Shown one piece after another: positions 18,918 through 25,237 of a DNA stretch of 32,000 nucleotides; position 1 is the first letter of the stretch, and every line of letters begins with the position of its first letter. The position numbers were made by a program, and so were the translations under genes. The notes beneath the pieces were generated by a model, which saw only the letters and a program-made list of their open reading frames with translations, was not told the origin of the DNA and did not search any database. The stretch is from Candidatus Iainarchaeum sp. (GTDB taxonomy: Archaea; Iainarchaeota; Iainarchaeia; Iainarchaeales; CSSED10-239). The DNA lies in NCBI GenBank assembly GCA_028700115.1, contig JAQVTI010000001.1, forward strand, positions 1 to 32,000, in the 5' to 3' direction.

Positions 18918-21239
18918 TTATTTTTCTAAATCTTTTTTCAAAGATAATTTTTTTTGATTTTTTTTAACTTGTTTTTTAGAAAGATCTTTAGAAAGATCTT
19001 TTTTTCTTTTTAAAAGATTTTCTATTTGACAATTAATTATTTTTAACTCAGATTCTTTTTCAATTGAATGAAAATGATGTTCTTTTTTAACTTCACATTT
19101 AATATTATTTTTTAAACAATCTTTTTCTTTAATAAAATTTAATTCTAAAAGATATTTATTTCTTAATTCTTTATAAGTAAAAGGAGAAATTTTACCATCT
19201 AAAAGATCCTCATCTAATTGAGATATTTTTTGTTTAATATGTTCTTTTTTTGTATGATTATATTTATATATTTCAAAAAATATAAAAAAAGTTATTATTA
19301 CTAAAAAAAATAAAACAAAATAAATTAAATAATTATTTTTATCATTTTTATAAATTACAAAATTTTGAGAAACATTATCAGATTCTAAAATATTAGAAGT
19401 ATCTAAATTATTAGAAGTATATAAATTATTTAAATTATCATCGATAGAATCTTGAATAATTATTTGAATATCTGCACTATTATAAAAATCTAAAATAACT
19501 TCTTCAACTTCAAATAATCTATTTGAAATATTTAAAATAGAATTTGAAGTTTTTAAATTAGAAAGTGAAGACTCTGGATTTTTATTTTCATAATACAAAT
19601 AATTTTCATAAAAATAAATTGCATGATCTAAAAAAAGTTTAGACCAAACATTGTCTTTAGAATTTAAAGAATTTATTGACCTTAAAGAATTATTTAAATA
19701 TTCATAATTTTTATAAAATAAAGAATTATCGAAAAGCTCAACATTATTTTGTTCAATAGTTTCTAAAACAGCAAATGCAGATGCAGAATCAAAAAGAGAA
19801 GTAACATACCAACCTCTTTTAAAATTATATTTTGCAGAATCAAATCTTCTTACAAAATCAGAATCGGTTGCAATTTCAGGATTAGAAATCATTAACTTAT
19901 TTTCTATATCTATAATTTTATTTTGAGCAATTTCTTTAAAATAATTAGATTCTACAAACTTATTTTTAGAATCTGTAATACCTACATCTAAAAAATCATT
20001 TGCAATATCAGCCCATGAATTTGCATAAGAATAATCTGTTATTTTTTCTATTGGTCCTTTTAAAGAATAATTACTTATTTTAATATTATCTAATTTATTT
20101 CTAGCCCAAGTTATTCTTTGTTTTGCACCTATACACCATTCTAAATTTTCTAAAGAACAAAAATTAGTTCTATTTTCTACTAATTTAATTTTTTTTTCTA
20201 AATCATCAAGTCTTATATCAAAAATAGTAGAAGAATCAGAAATAATAGAAGGATTTGTAATAATCTCATCAACAACTGTTAAATTTATAAAAGTCACAAA
20301 AGAATTATTTGCTGCAGAATATAAAAAATTTCCTTCAGAATATAATTTAGATTTATTTAAACCATCTTCTGCATAAGAAATAACTTCAAGCATACTTTGC
20401 ATAATAGAAGAATCATCTAAATCTGTTTTAGACAGATTTTCGGTGGTAACTTTTAATTTTTTTTCAGCTTCAATTATATATTTATCTACTAAAATTTTCA
20501 TTGGTTCTACAGCTTTAGAATATTTTATATTTTCTGGAAAATAAGAATCTGTTTCTAAAAAATTATCTTGATTAATATCAATTGAAGAAATATCTTTTTT
20601 TGCAAAAGACATTACTTGATCAATTGTTTCTGCTTCAATTATTTTCATACCATATTTATCATAAATATAATCTATTAAATCAACTTTATAAATTTCTCCA
20701 TTTTCATTAATCATTTGAGATCTATTACCAACAGGTATAAAAAATAACTTAATACCAACTTCTGCAGCTTTAATAGTTTTTTCTAAAATTCCCCCAACAT
20801 CTCCTATATGCCCATCATTAGAAATAGAACCTGTAAGACTAATAGAATCTATATTTAAATCTTCAAACATAGAAATTATTAAAAAAGCCATAGCAGAACC
20901 TGCTGAAGGACCATCTACACTATATGCATTTGATTCTATATCTATTGTAAAATTATATTTATTTTTAATATCTTGATCAAGATAAAGATCTGCAGTAGAA
21001 ATAGCATGTTTTACAGATTCTTGAGTAGAACTACCTACAATAGATTCATCTATCGAAGAATAAATTTTTCCAATACCATCTATTATTGAAATATTTAATT
21101 TTGCTTCCATTGCATTTTCAGAAGACCCAACTGCAAAAATACTCATAGTTTGATTTGGAATTAATGCTGAAACAGAAGGCAACAAAATAATTATTATTAA
21201 AAAAATACTTATTAAATTTCTTAAATTCATTAAAATCAC
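18918..21239 (-). CDS. Membrane-anchored extracytoplasmic Lon-protease-domain (S16) serine peptidase without an ATPase domain, with a SHOCT-like cytoplasmic tail
   Basis: Signal peptide MNLRNLISIFLIIIILLPSVSA. Lon_C catalytic motifs are VDGPSAGSAMAFLI (Ser) and GDVGGILEKTIKAAEVGIKLFFIP (Lys). A single TM (YLIYFVLFFLVIITFFIFFEIY) lies near the C-terminus, followed by LLDGKISPFTYKELRNKYLLEL and a K-rich coiled tail. The likely start is ATG at 21230, preceded by GTGAT (21239-21235). Confidence 0.8.
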   Translation of the reverse strand: MILMNLRNLISIFLIIIILLPSVSALIPNQTMSIFAVGSSENAMEAKLNISIIDGIGKIYSSIDESIVGSSTQESVKHAISTADLYLDQDIKNKYNFTIDIESNAYSVDGPSAGSAMAFLIISMFEDLNIDSISLTGSISNDGHIGDVGGILEKTIKAAEVGIKLFFIPVGNRSQMINENGEIYKVDLIDYIYDKYGMKIIEAETIDQVMSFAKKDISSIDINQDNFLETDSYFPENIKYSKAVEPMKILVDKYIIEAEKKLKVTTENLSKTDLDDSSIMQSMLEVISYAEDGLNKSKLYSEGNFLYSAANNSFVTFINLTVVDEIITNPSIISDSSTIFDIRLDDLEKKIKLVENRTNFCSLENLEWCIGAKQRITWARNKLDNIKISNYSLKGPIEKITDYSYANSWADIANDFLDVGITDSKNKFVESNYFKEIAQNKIIDIENKLMISNPEIATDSDFVRRFDSAKYNFKRGWYVTSLFDSASAFAVLETIEQNNVELFDNSLFYKNYEYLNNSLRSINSLNSKDNVWSKLFLDHAIYFYENYLYYENKNPESSLSNLKTSNSILNISNRLFEVEEVILDFYNSADIQIIIQDSIDDNLNNLYTSNNLDTSNILESDNVSQNFVIYKNDKNNYLIYFVLFFLVIITFFIFFEIYKYNHTKKEHIKQKISQLDEDLLDGKISPFTYKELRNKYLLELNFIKEKDCLKNNIKCEVKKEHHFHSIEKESELKIINCQIENLLKRKKDLSKDLSKKQVKKNQKKLSLKKDLEK

Positions 21240-21315
21240 ATATATATTATATTAAAAACACATATAATATACATATAAATATTTATATACTTATTTATAA
21301 AAAGAAAAAAAGAAA

Positions 21316-21777
21316 TTACTTTTTATTTTTAAAAAGTAAATTGAATTTTTTTGTAATTCTTAAAACATTTTTTCTACCGTTTTTTTCAACAGTAATTAAA
21401 TCTAAATCTTTTAAGATCTTTAAATCCTCATGAGGTCTTTTTCTAATTATTTTTGATTGATCAATTGGTGAATTTAAAGATATATATGCAAGAGTTTTAA
21501 GTTCAGATTTAGAAAGAATAGTTCCAGTTGCAAAAATATTAAATGAATGAAAATCAGGTTTAACAACCATTTCAATTTTTTTATTATCTCTTAAAATTGA
21601 AATAGAGGTTTTTCTTTTATTATATTCTTCAACTAATTCTTCAACTGAAATATCTATTAAATCAGAAGAAATATTTGGAAGAGCCTTATATATTGTCTTT
21701 ATATTAACTCCTTTTGGAGACATAAATAAGATTGCTTCAATTGCTTGTTTTAAATAATCTGCACTCTCTTTATCCAT
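21316..21777 (-). CDS. scpB: Segregation and condensation protein B (SMC-ScpAB complex subunit)
   Basis: AIEAILFMSPKGVNIKTIYKAL is the typical ScpB N-terminus. A second winged-helix pattern follows: LSKSELKTLAYISLNSPIDQSKIIRKR...LKDLDLITVEKNGRK...ITKKFNLLF. Confidence 0.85.
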   Translation of the reverse strand: MDKESADYLKQAIEAILFMSPKGVNIKTIYKALPNISSDLIDISVEELVEEYNKRKTSISILRDNKKIEMVVKPDFHSFNIFATGTILSKSELKTLAYISLNSPIDQSKIIRKRPHEDLKILKDLDLITVEKNGRKNVLRITKKFNLLFKNKK

Positions 21778-21786
21778 ATAAAACCA

Positions 21787-24486
21787 CTATTTGCCATCAG
21801 AATTATAATTTGTAATTACTCTATTTTCAAAATCTGTAATTGCATAACCATCTAAAGTTTCAACTCTTAGACAATAATTACAACTATAGGTACTTGATTG
21901 CTCATTACAAGTTTGAACAAAAGGAATTAATTCTGTAGAAGTAAATGACTTAGAATAAGTGCCATTTGAATATATTCCATTTCCAAAAATTAAAGTAGAT
22001 CTATCTTCACAAATTCCATTTCCTTCTGGATTTACAAAATATGTAAACTTTACAGAGTTAGGAGGATAACTAGAAATGTCTGGAAAATTTAAAGGAGTTA
22101 CATGTGTATATAAAGTCCCTCCACCATTTGCAAAATTATAAGGATTAACTGGATTTTGAAGAGTAAATGAAGGCTTTGTTATTGTCCATACATAATATGG
22201 AGTTTGATAAGTTTGATTTGCTCCTCCTGCAATTGGAGTAGCTATAACTTTTAGAGAAATATAATAAGATTTACTTATTCCATCATCTACAATAAAACCT
22301 AAATCTTTCATATTAGCATTATTTTCAAAACCAGAAAAATTACAAGAATCTAAAAATTCAACAGGAGTTCCAGAAATAGATTCTTTTCTATACCAAATGC
22401 ATTGTGGATTTTGATAATTTTCAGAATCATACATACTTTCAAAATCTTGATATTCATATTCACTAATTGAACCAATAACTGCATTTGTAGTATGATTAGG
22501 CAAAACAATTTCTGCAGTTAAATCTGGGATATTTGGATCAAGAATAGTAACAGATGAAACATCTGTAACTTCACAAGCAGAAGGATTTGCAAGACATGCA
22601 GAAGTATCTGTTGCAGTTAAATTAAAAGTATATTCTCCAGGAGAACTTAAAGTAGTTGTTCCTGAACAAGTATTATATGTATGAACTATTTGATTACTTG
22701 AATTTTTAATTTCATAAACACAAGAAACTTGTCCAATATTTCCAGAATAATTTGTAGAAAAATTAATTGTTTGATCAAGATTATATGTAGAATTATCTAC
22801 AGGTTCATTTACACTTGCTGCAAAATTATATGAAGAATTATTAGTTATATTTAAATATTTAGCACTAGGAATATACATTCTACAATTATCTTGTAATATT
22901 AATTTTAACTCTTTATTTTGCCCAACATCTGATAAATCAAAAGTATAAGTTGTATCACAAACATTTGCAATTACTTGACCATCTAACTTCCAAGTACAAG
23001 AAACATTCCCATTTTCTTGAGAATAAAATGCTTTTAAATTTACAGATTCCTCAACTTCAAAATCAGTTTGAGAAGAAGGAGAAAAAAAACCTCCTATAAG
23101 TCCTTTTACTGAAAAAGTTTTACTAGAATATGAAGAACTAGAATCATCAGTTGCAACAACATTTAAATCATATGCAAATGTATTAATATCATTACAAGTA
23201 ACATCATAAACTGTATTACAACCATTTGCAATAGATTCATTATCTAAAAACCACTCACAATTAACAGTTCCATAATTATTCTCATAGCTTGCATCTAAAT
23301 TAATTGTTTCTCCAGCATTTGCAGAACCCGGAGTAATAGAATCTATTAAAACTGTTAAAGCGCCTCGAGAAAAAACTGAAATATTAATATTTTTATTAAG
23401 AGTTGTACAAGTATCAGTTATAACTAAATTTAAATCTTGATTATTTCCAACATCTCTTTCTTGTAAAATATAAGTATCATCATCACATACAGAAGAAATT
23501 AAATTATCTCCTAAATACCAATTACAATCTAAATTATTAATACCCCCAAAAATATTTAAATTTGAAGAACTTAAAATAATTTCATCCCCAACATAATAAT
23601 TTAAACTATTGCTTGGGGAATTTATAGCTGAAGATAAAGATAAAATGTTTGCATTAATCCAATCATTTACATTTTCAGAATTATTAATTACATCTACAAT
23701 TAAATTATGATCACTACCAACATCTGAACATTCTGGAGTATAAATCACTTGACATATATTTGATAATGAAAATAAATTTTTATTAGTATTATCATTTTTA
23801 ATTAGATTCCAATCACAAGAATAATCCCCAGAATTATTATTTACTGATGCATTTAAAGTATAATTTAAACCAGGAGTAAAAGAATAACTATTACTTGTTG
23901 TAGGAGATGTAATTTCTACACTTAATAGTTCTGGAGTTGATTCATTATCAACAACAGAAATTGTAATATCATCATTTGCAGTATTTCCATTAAAATCTTT
24001 TACAGAAACATTAATAACATAATTACCAGCATTTGGAAAATTATTATCTGGTAATGAAATATTAGCTCCATAACAAGTATCCTGTAATTCATATAATAAA
24101 TTACTTCCAACATACCAATTACAATCATAACTTCCAGAATTATTATCTACAGTTGCAGAAAAATAAATTAAATCATTTTCAGCAATATTATAATCTTCAG
24201 ATGAAGATGGAGAATTAATTAAAACATCTAAATTATTATTTGTAACATTATTAACATTAGAAGAAGAGTTTAAATTAGAAACTTCATTTAAAAAATTATT
24301 AACAACATCTTCTGAAGAAGATGCTGTTTTTGAAGCAGAATCAATATTTTTATTTGAAGAATTAATAATTACAATCCCTACAAAAATTGCACCAACTATT
24401 AAAACAGCTAAAATAACTATTAATTCTATTGAAACTTGTGCTTTTTTTTTTTTTGAATTTTTTAAAAAATTAGAATATGTATTCAT
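21787..24486 (-). CDS. Large pilin-like surface protein: archaeal class III (type IV prepilin-type) signal peptide followed by about 7 Cys-containing Ig/PKD-like repeats
   Basis: The N-terminus KKKKAQVSIELIVILAVLIVGAIFVGIVII fits the [KR][GA]|Q...E+5 prepilin signal. A recurring module of about 90-100 aa has conserved Cys and Trp residues (YDCNWYVGSNL.., YSCDWNLIKND.., LDCNWYLGDNL.., VNCEWFLDNES.., VSCTWKLDGQV.., VSCVYEIKNSS.., PQCIWYRKES..). Each ends in a V/I-x-V/A-x-D strand (NVSVKD, LIVDVIN, LVITD, VVATDD, LILQD, LTATD). Confidence 0.8.
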   Translation of the reverse strand: MNTYSNFLKNSKKKKAQVSIELIVILAVLIVGAIFVGIVIINSSNKNIDSASKTASSSEDVVNNFLNEVSNLNSSSNVNNVTNNNLDVLINSPSSSEDYNIAENDLIYFSATVDNNSGSYDCNWYVGSNLLYELQDTCYGANISLPDNNFPNAGNYVINVSVKDFNGNTANDDITISVVDNESTPELLSVEITSPTTSNSYSFTPGLNYTLNASVNNNSGDYSCDWNLIKNDNTNKNLFSLSNICQVIYTPECSDVGSDHNLIVDVINNSENVNDWINANILSLSSAINSPSNSLNYYVGDEIILSSSNLNIFGGINNLDCNWYLGDNLISSVCDDDTYILQERDVGNNQDLNLVITDTCTTLNKNINISVFSRGALTVLIDSITPGSANAGETINLDASYENNYGTVNCEWFLDNESIANGCNTVYDVTCNDINTFAYDLNVVATDDSSSSYSSKTFSVKGLIGGFFSPSSQTDFEVEESVNLKAFYSQENGNVSCTWKLDGQVIANVCDTTYTFDLSDVGQNKELKLILQDNCRMYIPSAKYLNITNNSSYNFAASVNEPVDNSTYNLDQTINFSTNYSGNIGQVSCVYEIKNSSNQIVHTYNTCSGTTTLSSPGEYTFNLTATDTSACLANPSACEVTDVSSVTILDPNIPDLTAEIVLPNHTTNAVIGSISEYEYQDFESMYDSENYQNPQCIWYRKESISGTPVEFLDSCNFSGFENNANMKDLGFIVDDGISKSYYISLKVIATPIAGGANQTYQTPYYVWTITKPSFTLQNPVNPYNFANGGGTLYTHVTPLNFPDISSYPPNSVKFTYFVNPEGNGICEDRSTLIFGNGIYSNGTYSKSFTSTELIPFVQTCNEQSSTYSCNYCLRVETLDGYAITDFENRVITNYNSDGK

Positions 24487-24571
24487 AAATTATCAACTTA
24501 TTAAAATATATATTTATTTTATAGTTAATATATTTTATAAACTTATGGTTTTAAAAAAATCTAATAAAAAA

Positions 24572-25237
24572 CTAGTTTAAAATTTTAATAAATATCTCTG
24601 AGAAAAAATCTTCTTGCCATATATTAACTTTTTTATCTTGATTTAAAAAAAGTAAAGGTATAAAAAAATTATCAACTAAATCCAAATTAGAAATATCTTT
24701 TGCTAAAAAAGAAAAAGTAATACAACCTACTTCATCTACATTCTTTTTTAAAATAGAATATAAATTTTTAATTCTTATATTTATTTCTTCAGTCTTTTTA
24801 GGCATTACAAAGACTTCTTCTTTTTTTTCTTTAATCTTTCTATCAATATTTTGTTTTGTAGGTCTATTCATAATAAAATCTACAACATCAATAAGTTCAT
24901 CTAAAGAAACTTGACCTTCTTTAAATCTCACTGGATTATCTAAATTTATATTATTTAATAAATCATCTTCTGTAGGAATTTTTAATTCATCTTCATCATC
25001 AACTATACTTGTAAGTTTTAGAGAATAAGCTTTAAGTTTTAATAAAATTGCAGCAGCAAGTAATGCATTTGCAGGAATTAATAAATTATCTTCTTTCATT
25101 TCTTTTATTTTTAATAAATATAAATCTGTTAATTTAATTAAATCTACATTCCATAAATCAAAATCATTAGATTTAACAAGCTCAGTTAGAAGTATCTTCC
25201 AATTTGGTTGTTTTATTATATTTACTAATTGGTCCAT
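24572..25237 (-). CDS. scpA: Segregation and condensation protein A (kleisin of the SMC-ScpAB complex)
   Basis: DLIKLTDLYLLKIKEMKEDNLLIPANALLAAAILLKLKAYSLKL matches the conserved ScpA N-terminal helix pattern. It has a C-terminal winged-helix-like end and is about 220 aa. Confidence 0.85.
   Translation of the reverse strand: MDQLVNIIKQPNWKILLTELVKSNDFDLWNVDLIKLTDLYLLKIKEMKEDNLLIPANALLAAAILLKLKAYSLKLTSIVDDEDELKIPTEDDLLNNINLDNPVRFKEGQVSLDELIDVVDFIMNRPTKQNIDRKIKEKKEEVFVMPKKTEEINIRIKNLYSILKKNVDEVGCITFSFLAKDISNLDLVDNFFIPLLFLNQDKKVNIWQEDFFSEIFIKILN

Follow-up and report, generated by a model that had tools for sequence, protein, structure and literature searches.

What is the large gene that lies between scpA and scpB in this archaeal genome, and how did it come to be there? 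The locus is found in a stretch of 32,000 nucleotides (the window, C38:1-32000) from a 47-contig assembly of 0.96 Mb (965 kb; ~22% GC) named Candidatus Iainarchaeum sp., and the gene in question encodes 899 amino acids (aa) on the minus strand (21787-24486). The organism is a Forterrea-like DPANN archaeon, and other relatives of it are labelled Iainarchaeum or Diapherotrites. The Iainarchaeota are uncultured DPANN archaea for which no means of attachment to partner cells is known, if they attach at all. The 899-aa gene probably encodes an archaeal modular type IV pilin. Its product is likely a pilus-presented or membrane-anchored adhesin, for which we infer cleavage, incorporation into a pilus and a ligand from the sequence.

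The N-terminus carries much of this reading. The protein starts with a basic leader (aa 1-16, MNTYSNFLKNSKKKKA; 24439-24486, minus strand), which is predicted to be cut by a prepilin peptidase after Ala16, and continues as QVSIELIVILAVLIVGAIFVGIVIINS, so that positions -1, +1, +3 and +5 are Ala, Gln, Ser and Glu. This class III signal, KKKKA/QVSIE(LIV) (the slash marks the predicted cut), is followed by ~27 hydrophobic residues; it fits the signature of Epd-type prepilins, a short basic leader with a [KR]-[GA]/Q-x-S-x-E site and a hydrophobic helix of at least 20 residues. The first-pass annotation, which was made from the letters of the window, had proposed an archaeal class III or prepilin signal with Gln +1 and Glu +5, and the sequence bears this out. 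The pilin module proper (aa 17-73, ending in ..V(D/N)NF..L; 24268-24438, minus strand) consists of the hydrophobic helix and an amphipathic extension, and is delimited by the modelled helix, the PF04021 match and its conservation. According to AlphaFold2, residues 20-73 form a single continuous N-terminal helix, which is the pilin-like element that structure prediction was expected to reveal. An Asn/Ser-rich linker (aa 74-86; 24229-24267, minus strand), with a predicted local distance difference test (pLDDT) score below 50 for residues 72-83, leads to immunoglobulin (Ig)-like modules at aa 87-649. The protein therefore has the architecture of a modular pilin, that is, an N-terminal pilin module, a linker and modules foreign to type IV filaments (T4F). 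The leader residues K12-K15, just ahead of the predicted cleavage site, are encoded by a run of 13 A residues (24442-24454). The window has no other run of 11 nt or longer, and in the 965-kb genome this is one of only three that reach 13 nt. Phase variation through this run was considered and is not indicated, because the other long A/T runs sit in ordinary Lys-runs of unrelated proteins.

An A24 prepilin peptidase and T4F ATPase and platform proteins are encoded elsewhere in the same genome, which has three A24 peptidase matches, four T2SSE ATPases and eight T2SSF matches in its 0.96 Mb. A locus on contig C40 contains an ATPase, two platform genes, four pilins, an A24 peptidase with an archaeal C-terminal domain (Arc_PepC) and two more pilins. 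Two of the C40 pilins reach 33 bits on PF04021, and the C40 pilins carry the same K-[AG]/Q-x-S-x-E cleavage site as the large protein. As read from its gene content, this is a complete pilus locus of the Epd-like or "system 1" kind, a layout of archaeal T4F in which the main pilin has no globular head (PMC13705601). A peptidase match (above the cut-off in 21 cases), pilus ATPases and platform genes were likewise present in all 22 of the family genomes searched. The first-pass annotation had asked whether such machinery exists elsewhere in the genome, and had granted that a common insertion with no pilus machinery would speak against a pilin; the objection fails, since peptidase and platform genes occur in every one of the 22 genomes. 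Some 21-25 kb past the end of the window (C38:52709-56878; L114, genome G000), a 565-aa protein with the same pilin N-module (70 bits) adjoins one of 793 aa in which a Peptidase_M6 domain is combined with two C-x-W Ig-like modules.

How the gene came to its position was approached by comparing the scpB neighbourhoods of 37 of the related genomes that were searched and of 30 named loci. In g1, g2 and g5, which are genera of the Forterrea family (Iainarchaeota, DPANN), every genome in which the region is assembled has one to three co-oriented pilin genes between scpA and scpB. These slot genes span 71-932 aa, and each starts with [KR]-[AG]/Q-x-S-x-E, followed by a helix and ...V(D/N)NF..L (~65 aa in all). 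Their sizes are 71 and 73 aa in G007, 81 aa in G010 and G013, 266 aa in G006, 127, 730 and 258 aa in G004 (Ca. Forterrea multitransposorum), 594, 932 and 157 aa in G002, 177 and 581 aa in G001, 85 and 887 aa in the metagenome locus L083, and 899 aa in the window. The ~65-aa pilin module is conserved in 22/22 aligned slot genes, with Gln+1 and Glu+5 invariant, and it also stands alone as genes of 71-85 aa in relatives. One subclade of genus g4 has scpA directly next to scpB, with a 141-443-aa gene that bears the same pilin module 3-31 bp upstream of scpA. Five family genomes, and the order-level relatives examined, have no pilin gene beside scpA/scpB. In a tree of ScpA, ScpB and the Lon-domain protein encoded next to them, the 11 rows with the "between" state form a single clade (100/100), as do the 5 rows with the "upstream" state (100/99), which amounts to two changes in all. 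The pilin slot is therefore a resident, inherited, lineage-wide arrangement and not a recent insertion, and the first-pass picture of a singular gene wedged into scpAB is not supported as it was put. A literature search found no published description of pilin genes inside scpAB.

While the pilin module is kept, its passengers differ by species: none, one to seven Ig modules, InlB B-repeats or DUF285. In G001, G002 and G004, the slot genes encode InlB B-repeat (Flg_new_2) domains, as many as six of them, together with domains of DUF285 (E 1e-42 to 1e-62). The C-x-W Ig module occurs once in the 141-162-aa genes of g4 and in the 157-aa gene of G002, three times in the 432-443-aa g4 genes and at least twice in the G003 gene. 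The homologues can thus be arranged in a series of sizes, from 71 aa (helix only) through ~150 aa (one Ig module) and ~440 aa (three) to ~900 aa (six or seven, and a head). Since the same type of module is found in the 141-443-aa pilins of sister genera, growth in situ of a resident pilin gene seems at least as likely as insertion. A tree of the 67 columns of the pilin module is unresolved, being too short to decide between expansion in situ and replacement; in it, the 899-aa gene groups away (89/86) from the InlB/DUF285 genes. Other genes are also found in the interval. In G013 (L053:3090-4611) three non-pilin open reading frames (ORFs; 115, 175 and 199 aa) lie between scpA and scpB, and in G018 (L062:3017-5046) two non-pilin genes (454 and 248 aa) do, so the scpA-scpB interval takes other cargo too. 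In G001 (L046:6072-6851), a 259-aa ORF without a class III signal adjoins scpA inside the slot.

The large protein itself has a narrow distribution. An exhaustive phmmer search against 1.84 billion (1.84e9) representatives at E<=1e-3 returned just 54 proteins, among which the sole full-length orthologue is P0002 (887 aa, 66% identity). P0004 is a C-terminal fragment, and the C-terminal region is common only to P0002 and P0004; the other matches cover the N-terminal ~70 residues (in proteins of 83-859 aa) or the Ig modules (some in giants of 3,000-5,000 aa). P0002 occupies the same position in the ENA metagenome contig L083, which represents the closest relative and where an additional gene for a bare pilin module (P0003, 85 aa) lies between scpA and the large gene. 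Between the window and L083, identity is 95% for TFB, 93% for ScpA and 92% for ScpB, and 65.6% for the large protein overall, within which the Ig rod ranges over 40-78% per 50-residue block and residues 551-899 over 70-84%. Judged from these two sequences, the rod is evolving fast and constraint is strongest on the C-terminal part, which would be expected if this part is the functional end. Hypervariation of the diversity-generating retroelement type was also considered and rejected; blastn against the genome found no template repeat of the gene, and reverse transcriptase was not searched. The blastn matches of the gene in the whole genome were only short ones to the signal-coding 5' part and a few AT-rich stretches (27-62 bp).

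Beyond the linker, the protein is dominated by a rod (aa 87-649; 22540-24228, minus strand) of six tandem Ig-like (Big_7/PKD-like) beta-sandwich modules. AlphaFold2, run on the full protein with a 26-sequence alignment (mean pLDDT 70.9), models six beta-sandwich domains within residues 87-649, with pLDDT mostly 80-95. About seven Ig/PKD-like modules marked by Cys and Trp had been counted at first, and seven do align on the pattern I-x-S-P...G-x-x-x-C-x-W...C...D(V/L)G. Six of these stand, both in the model and in leave-one-out profiles (20-44 bits, against at most 12.8 bits for the best of 500 shuffles). The seventh (aa 660-754) has the C-x-W motif but reaches only 3.9 bits in the same test and is unmodelled. 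Matches of the rod to Big_7/PKD in Pfam are sub-threshold, and self-BLAST of the 899-aa protein finds no repeats, because the modules are too divergent and profile methods are needed. The best Foldseek matches of the rod are titin I65-I70 (4e-17), Aureispira GhpA (1.5e-16) and contactins.

The C-terminal region (aa 650-899; 21790-22539, minus strand) holds the doubtful seventh module and an orphan domain; it is the candidate binding end and also the stretch in which orthologues agree best (70-84% identity). In the full-length model, residues 653-803 are unmodelled (pLDDT ~30) and residues 804-892 are beta-rich (pLDDT ~60-80). Pfam gives no match to the region at E<=1, and a refold of aa 590-899 with the three available sequences (pLDDT 48.5) gives no Foldseek match at E<=1e-3. 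The 899-aa protein has no C-terminal hydrophobic anchor. Asn and Ser make up 26% of its residues, and its 26 N-glycosylation sequons are not evidence of surface exposure, because the Asn and Ser/Thr content by itself predicts ~25.

The large gene belongs to a row of minus-strand genes, which begins with a 227-aa gene of no assigned identity and continues with scpA (24572-25237, 221 aa), which encodes the kleisin subunit of the structural maintenance of chromosomes (SMC) complex. On the other side of the large gene lie scpB (21316-21777, 153 aa) and, 3' of it, a gene for a membrane protein of 773 aa that contains a Lon_C protease domain (18918-21239), both also on the minus strand. That the flanking genes are scpA and scpB was confirmed by profile search, with scores above the cut-offs for both PF02616 (E 2.1e-12, 48 bits, cut-off 24.6) and PF04079 (E 2.1e-18, 66.9 bits, cut-off 27.4). 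SMC is also present in the genome, as SMC_N matches to both ends of a 1100-aa ORF on contig C1. The layout first reported, a co-oriented gene of 2.7 kb separated by 85 bp from scpA (24487-24571) and by 9 bp from scpB (21778-21786), is correct in its coordinates, strand and sizes. The companion statement that scpA and scpB are usually adjacent holds only in part within this order; several relatives have intervening genes, or no scpB within 7 kb of scpA. In distant Iainarchaeota, Micrarchaeota and one Methanomicrobiales genome (L103-L107, L110-L113), scpB was not detected downstream of scpA in the DNA fetched, which extends up to 7 kb and in several cases stops earlier with the contig. In the lineages sampled from these three groups, a side-by-side arrangement of scpA and scpB is not a general feature.

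Transcription signals in the two gaps differ. The 85-bp gap has T6 and T7 runs right after the scpA stop, followed by TATA-like AT boxes and by a Shine-Dalgarno-like GTTGAT motif 5 nt upstream of the ATG of the large gene; a terminator scan found no hairpin in the gap, all its hairpin matches being intragenic. The gap could possibly combine a partial terminator after scpA with a promoter of the large gene's own. The 9-bp gap (TGGTTTTAT, minus strand) has no oligo-T run of 5 or more, which implies that the large gene and scpB are most likely co-transcribed. Gaps of -4 to +21 bp between the pilin gene and scpB, seen in 5/7 relatives in which a pilin gene adjoins scpB, agree with this. Immediately 3' of the scpB stop is a T-rich run of 17 nt (TTTCTTTTTTTCTTTTT; 21299-21315, minus strand), which is likely an archaeal oligo-T terminator that closes the unit. 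Overall, these signals suggest that transcription is likely to stop in part after scpA, to re-initiate, to run through the large gene and scpB together and to end after scpB. A sigma-70 promoter scan was uninformative (61 sites vs 68.9 expected), its model not being applicable to archaea. Among the hairpins, one with a 12-bp stem and a T-rich tail (24301-24328) falls at codons ~53-62 (...SSSEDVVNNF...), in the 5' part of the large gene, and was picked up on both strands. The gene for the Lon-domain protein is kept 3' of scpB across the whole family. Lon_C (aa 73-178) is the only domain of this protein, behind an N-terminal hydrophobic segment; at 68% identity to its orthologue it evolves as fast as the pilin gene, whereas ScpA and ScpB are 92-93% identical.

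Put together, these data suggest how the protein might work. The precursor would insert into the membrane, and its leader would be removed by one of the A24 prepilin peptidases of the genome, most likely that of the Epd-like locus on C40. The mature helix, now beginning with Gln1 and bearing Glu5, could then be taken up by a type IV filament machine (the ATPase and a split platform). On a thin pilus of the Epd/Tad-like kind, the bulky passenger would come to lie at the tip or on the outer face, or laterally by way of the flexible linker. The Ig rod (roughly 20-30 nm) would hold the C-terminal domain outward as a binding head. In genomic terms, the pilin gene fills a lineage-specific slot in the scpA-scpB unit in which the module is kept and the passengers vary, a combination that fits a fast-evolving function in attachment or recognition. 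The location at a pilus tip and the role in host attachment, which the first-pass annotation had put forward, are what we infer from this scheme.

Several observations weigh against a modular pilin with the function of an adhesin. The match to PF04021 (Class_IIIsignal/DUF361) over aa 1-80 scores 18.8 bits (E 0.0016), below the gathering threshold of 23.7. In favour of a pilin, PF04021 matches each of the five N-termini tested (16-22.5 bits), and in G006 the homologous slot gene exceeds the cut-off with 24.6 bits. The large gene lies outside the pilus locus; on its own contig, the nearest pilus ATPase is ~60 kb away. A passenger of 880 residues is unusually large for a subunit of a filament and might stand in the way of assembly. 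The word adhesin is taken from the architecture and the evolutionary pattern only, and the putative head has no recognisable fold. Finally, class III signals also occur on non-filament proteins, such as the substrate-binding proteins of the bindosome, and are widespread on archaeal surface proteins that are not pilins (PMC13705601). Such signals, the place of the gene outside any pilus locus, the size of the passenger and the presence of at least three large class III proteins scattered through this genome would all suit a signal that serves for export and anchoring only. After loss of the leader, the helix would then be retained by the membrane or by an assembly resembling a short pseudopilus or a bindosome, and the Ig rod would form a surface coat instead of being carried on an extended pilus. 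We take this possibility seriously but consider it unlikely. The N-module is homologous to the headless Epd/Tad-like pilin genes of 71-85 aa in the same slot, the Glu at +5 that is typical of assembling pilins is invariant, and the protein has neither a substrate-binding domain nor an adjacent ABC (ATP-binding cassette) transporter.

The position of the gene might also be taken to mean something in itself. Pilin genes lie -4 to +31 bp from scpA or scpB in 16 of the family loci that were examined, in two arrangements, and it could be argued that they are functionally linked to ScpAB, with the envelope or DNA uptake coupled to chromosome segregation, rather than neutrally linked. This is very improbable, given five family genomes and all order-level relatives examined in which no pilin gene is adjacent, passenger domains that are typical extracellular binding modules and the lack of any hint of DNA or SMC binding in the sequence. 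That the gene is a decaying remnant, or an ORF mis-called in AT-rich DNA, is effectively refuted: a 2.7-kb frame is uninterrupted in DNA of 22% GC, a full-length orthologue of 66% identity stands in the same position, six domains fold at pLDDT 80-95 and the C-terminal region is 70-84% conserved, against which only the Asn/Ser-rich composition (26%) and the narrow distribution could be set. A bolder extension of the modular pilin would make the scpA-scpB slot a dedicated locus of adhesin exchange. The 5' end of the pilin gene and the housekeeping flanks would serve as homology arms, passengers (Ig rods, InlB repeats, DUF285 heads) would be swapped or expanded by recombination between strains or species, and the scpAB unit would ensure constitutive expression, linked to the cell cycle, of whichever host-recognition adhesin is in place. 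We think it rather doubtful; if true, it would be an archaeal counterpart of the bacterial systems of pilin and adhesin variation.

As a modular pilin, the product of the 899-aa gene is likely to serve for attachment, as a type of device whose general outlines have been described before. For Ca. Forterrea, a symbiotic lifestyle has been predicted in a study that makes no mention of pili (PMC5905446). The locus offers a concrete candidate for attachment, namely a putative pilin-anchored, species-specific surface protein whose passengers differ among close relatives with flanks 92-95% identical. It would also extend the bacterial idea of the modular pilin to archaea, with a headless carrier module of the Epd type, and the conserved C-terminal domain gives binding studies a clear target. 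For now, the practical impact is modest.

Four known systems invite comparison. The large protein resembles the bindosome proteins in that a class III signal is placed on a large ectodomain of a non-filament type, encoded away from the assembly machinery (PMC13705601). However, Pfam and NCBIfam scans detect no substrate-binding protein family in it, and its neighbours are scpA, scpB and the Lon-domain protein, with no ABC transporter. Ig-fold adhesin-like proteins occur beside archaeal T4F genes (PMC13705601), and these adhesin-like or hook-like proteins, as well as the grappling hooks formed by GhpA of Aureispira, share with it the long rod of tandem Ig-like domains. In Foldseek, fragments of GhpA rank near the top (1.5e-16 to 6e-13), a likeness that is generic to tandem Ig arrays, with template-modelling (TM) scores of 0.14-0.26. 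In PMC13705601, the T4F-associated Ig-fold proteins are described as accessory proteins rather than pilin fusions, whereas the 899-aa protein has its rod joined directly to a pilin module.

The pilin module itself is closest to the Epd (EppA-dependent) pilins of Methanococcus maripaludis, the DUF361 or PF04021 family. Both have a short basic leader and the signature Q(+1)-x-S-x-E(+5); a headless form of ~70-85 aa is found in the same slot of relatives, and the genome's locus of the system-1 type has an A24 peptidase of its own beside two platform genes (PMC13705601). Unlike the Epd pilins, the large protein has a passenger of ~825 residues, a sub-threshold PF04021 score and a gene within the scpAB unit. 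In bacteria, more than 1,200 modular type IV pilins have been described, including the tip-located PilB, the largest being an 860-residue multi-repeat protein from a CPR (candidate phyla radiation) bacterium (PMC8179133). These differ from the protein described here in their IPR012902 motif, which takes the place of the archaeal class III signal, while the pilin module of the latter is headless and its predicted passenger is a six-domain Ig rod with an orphan domain. On the other hand, like PilB and PilC of Streptococcus sanguinis and CofB/TcpB (PMC8179133), it would have a small pilin module joined through a linker to a functional module, its passengers vary among relatives, and its expected site is the tip of the pilus.

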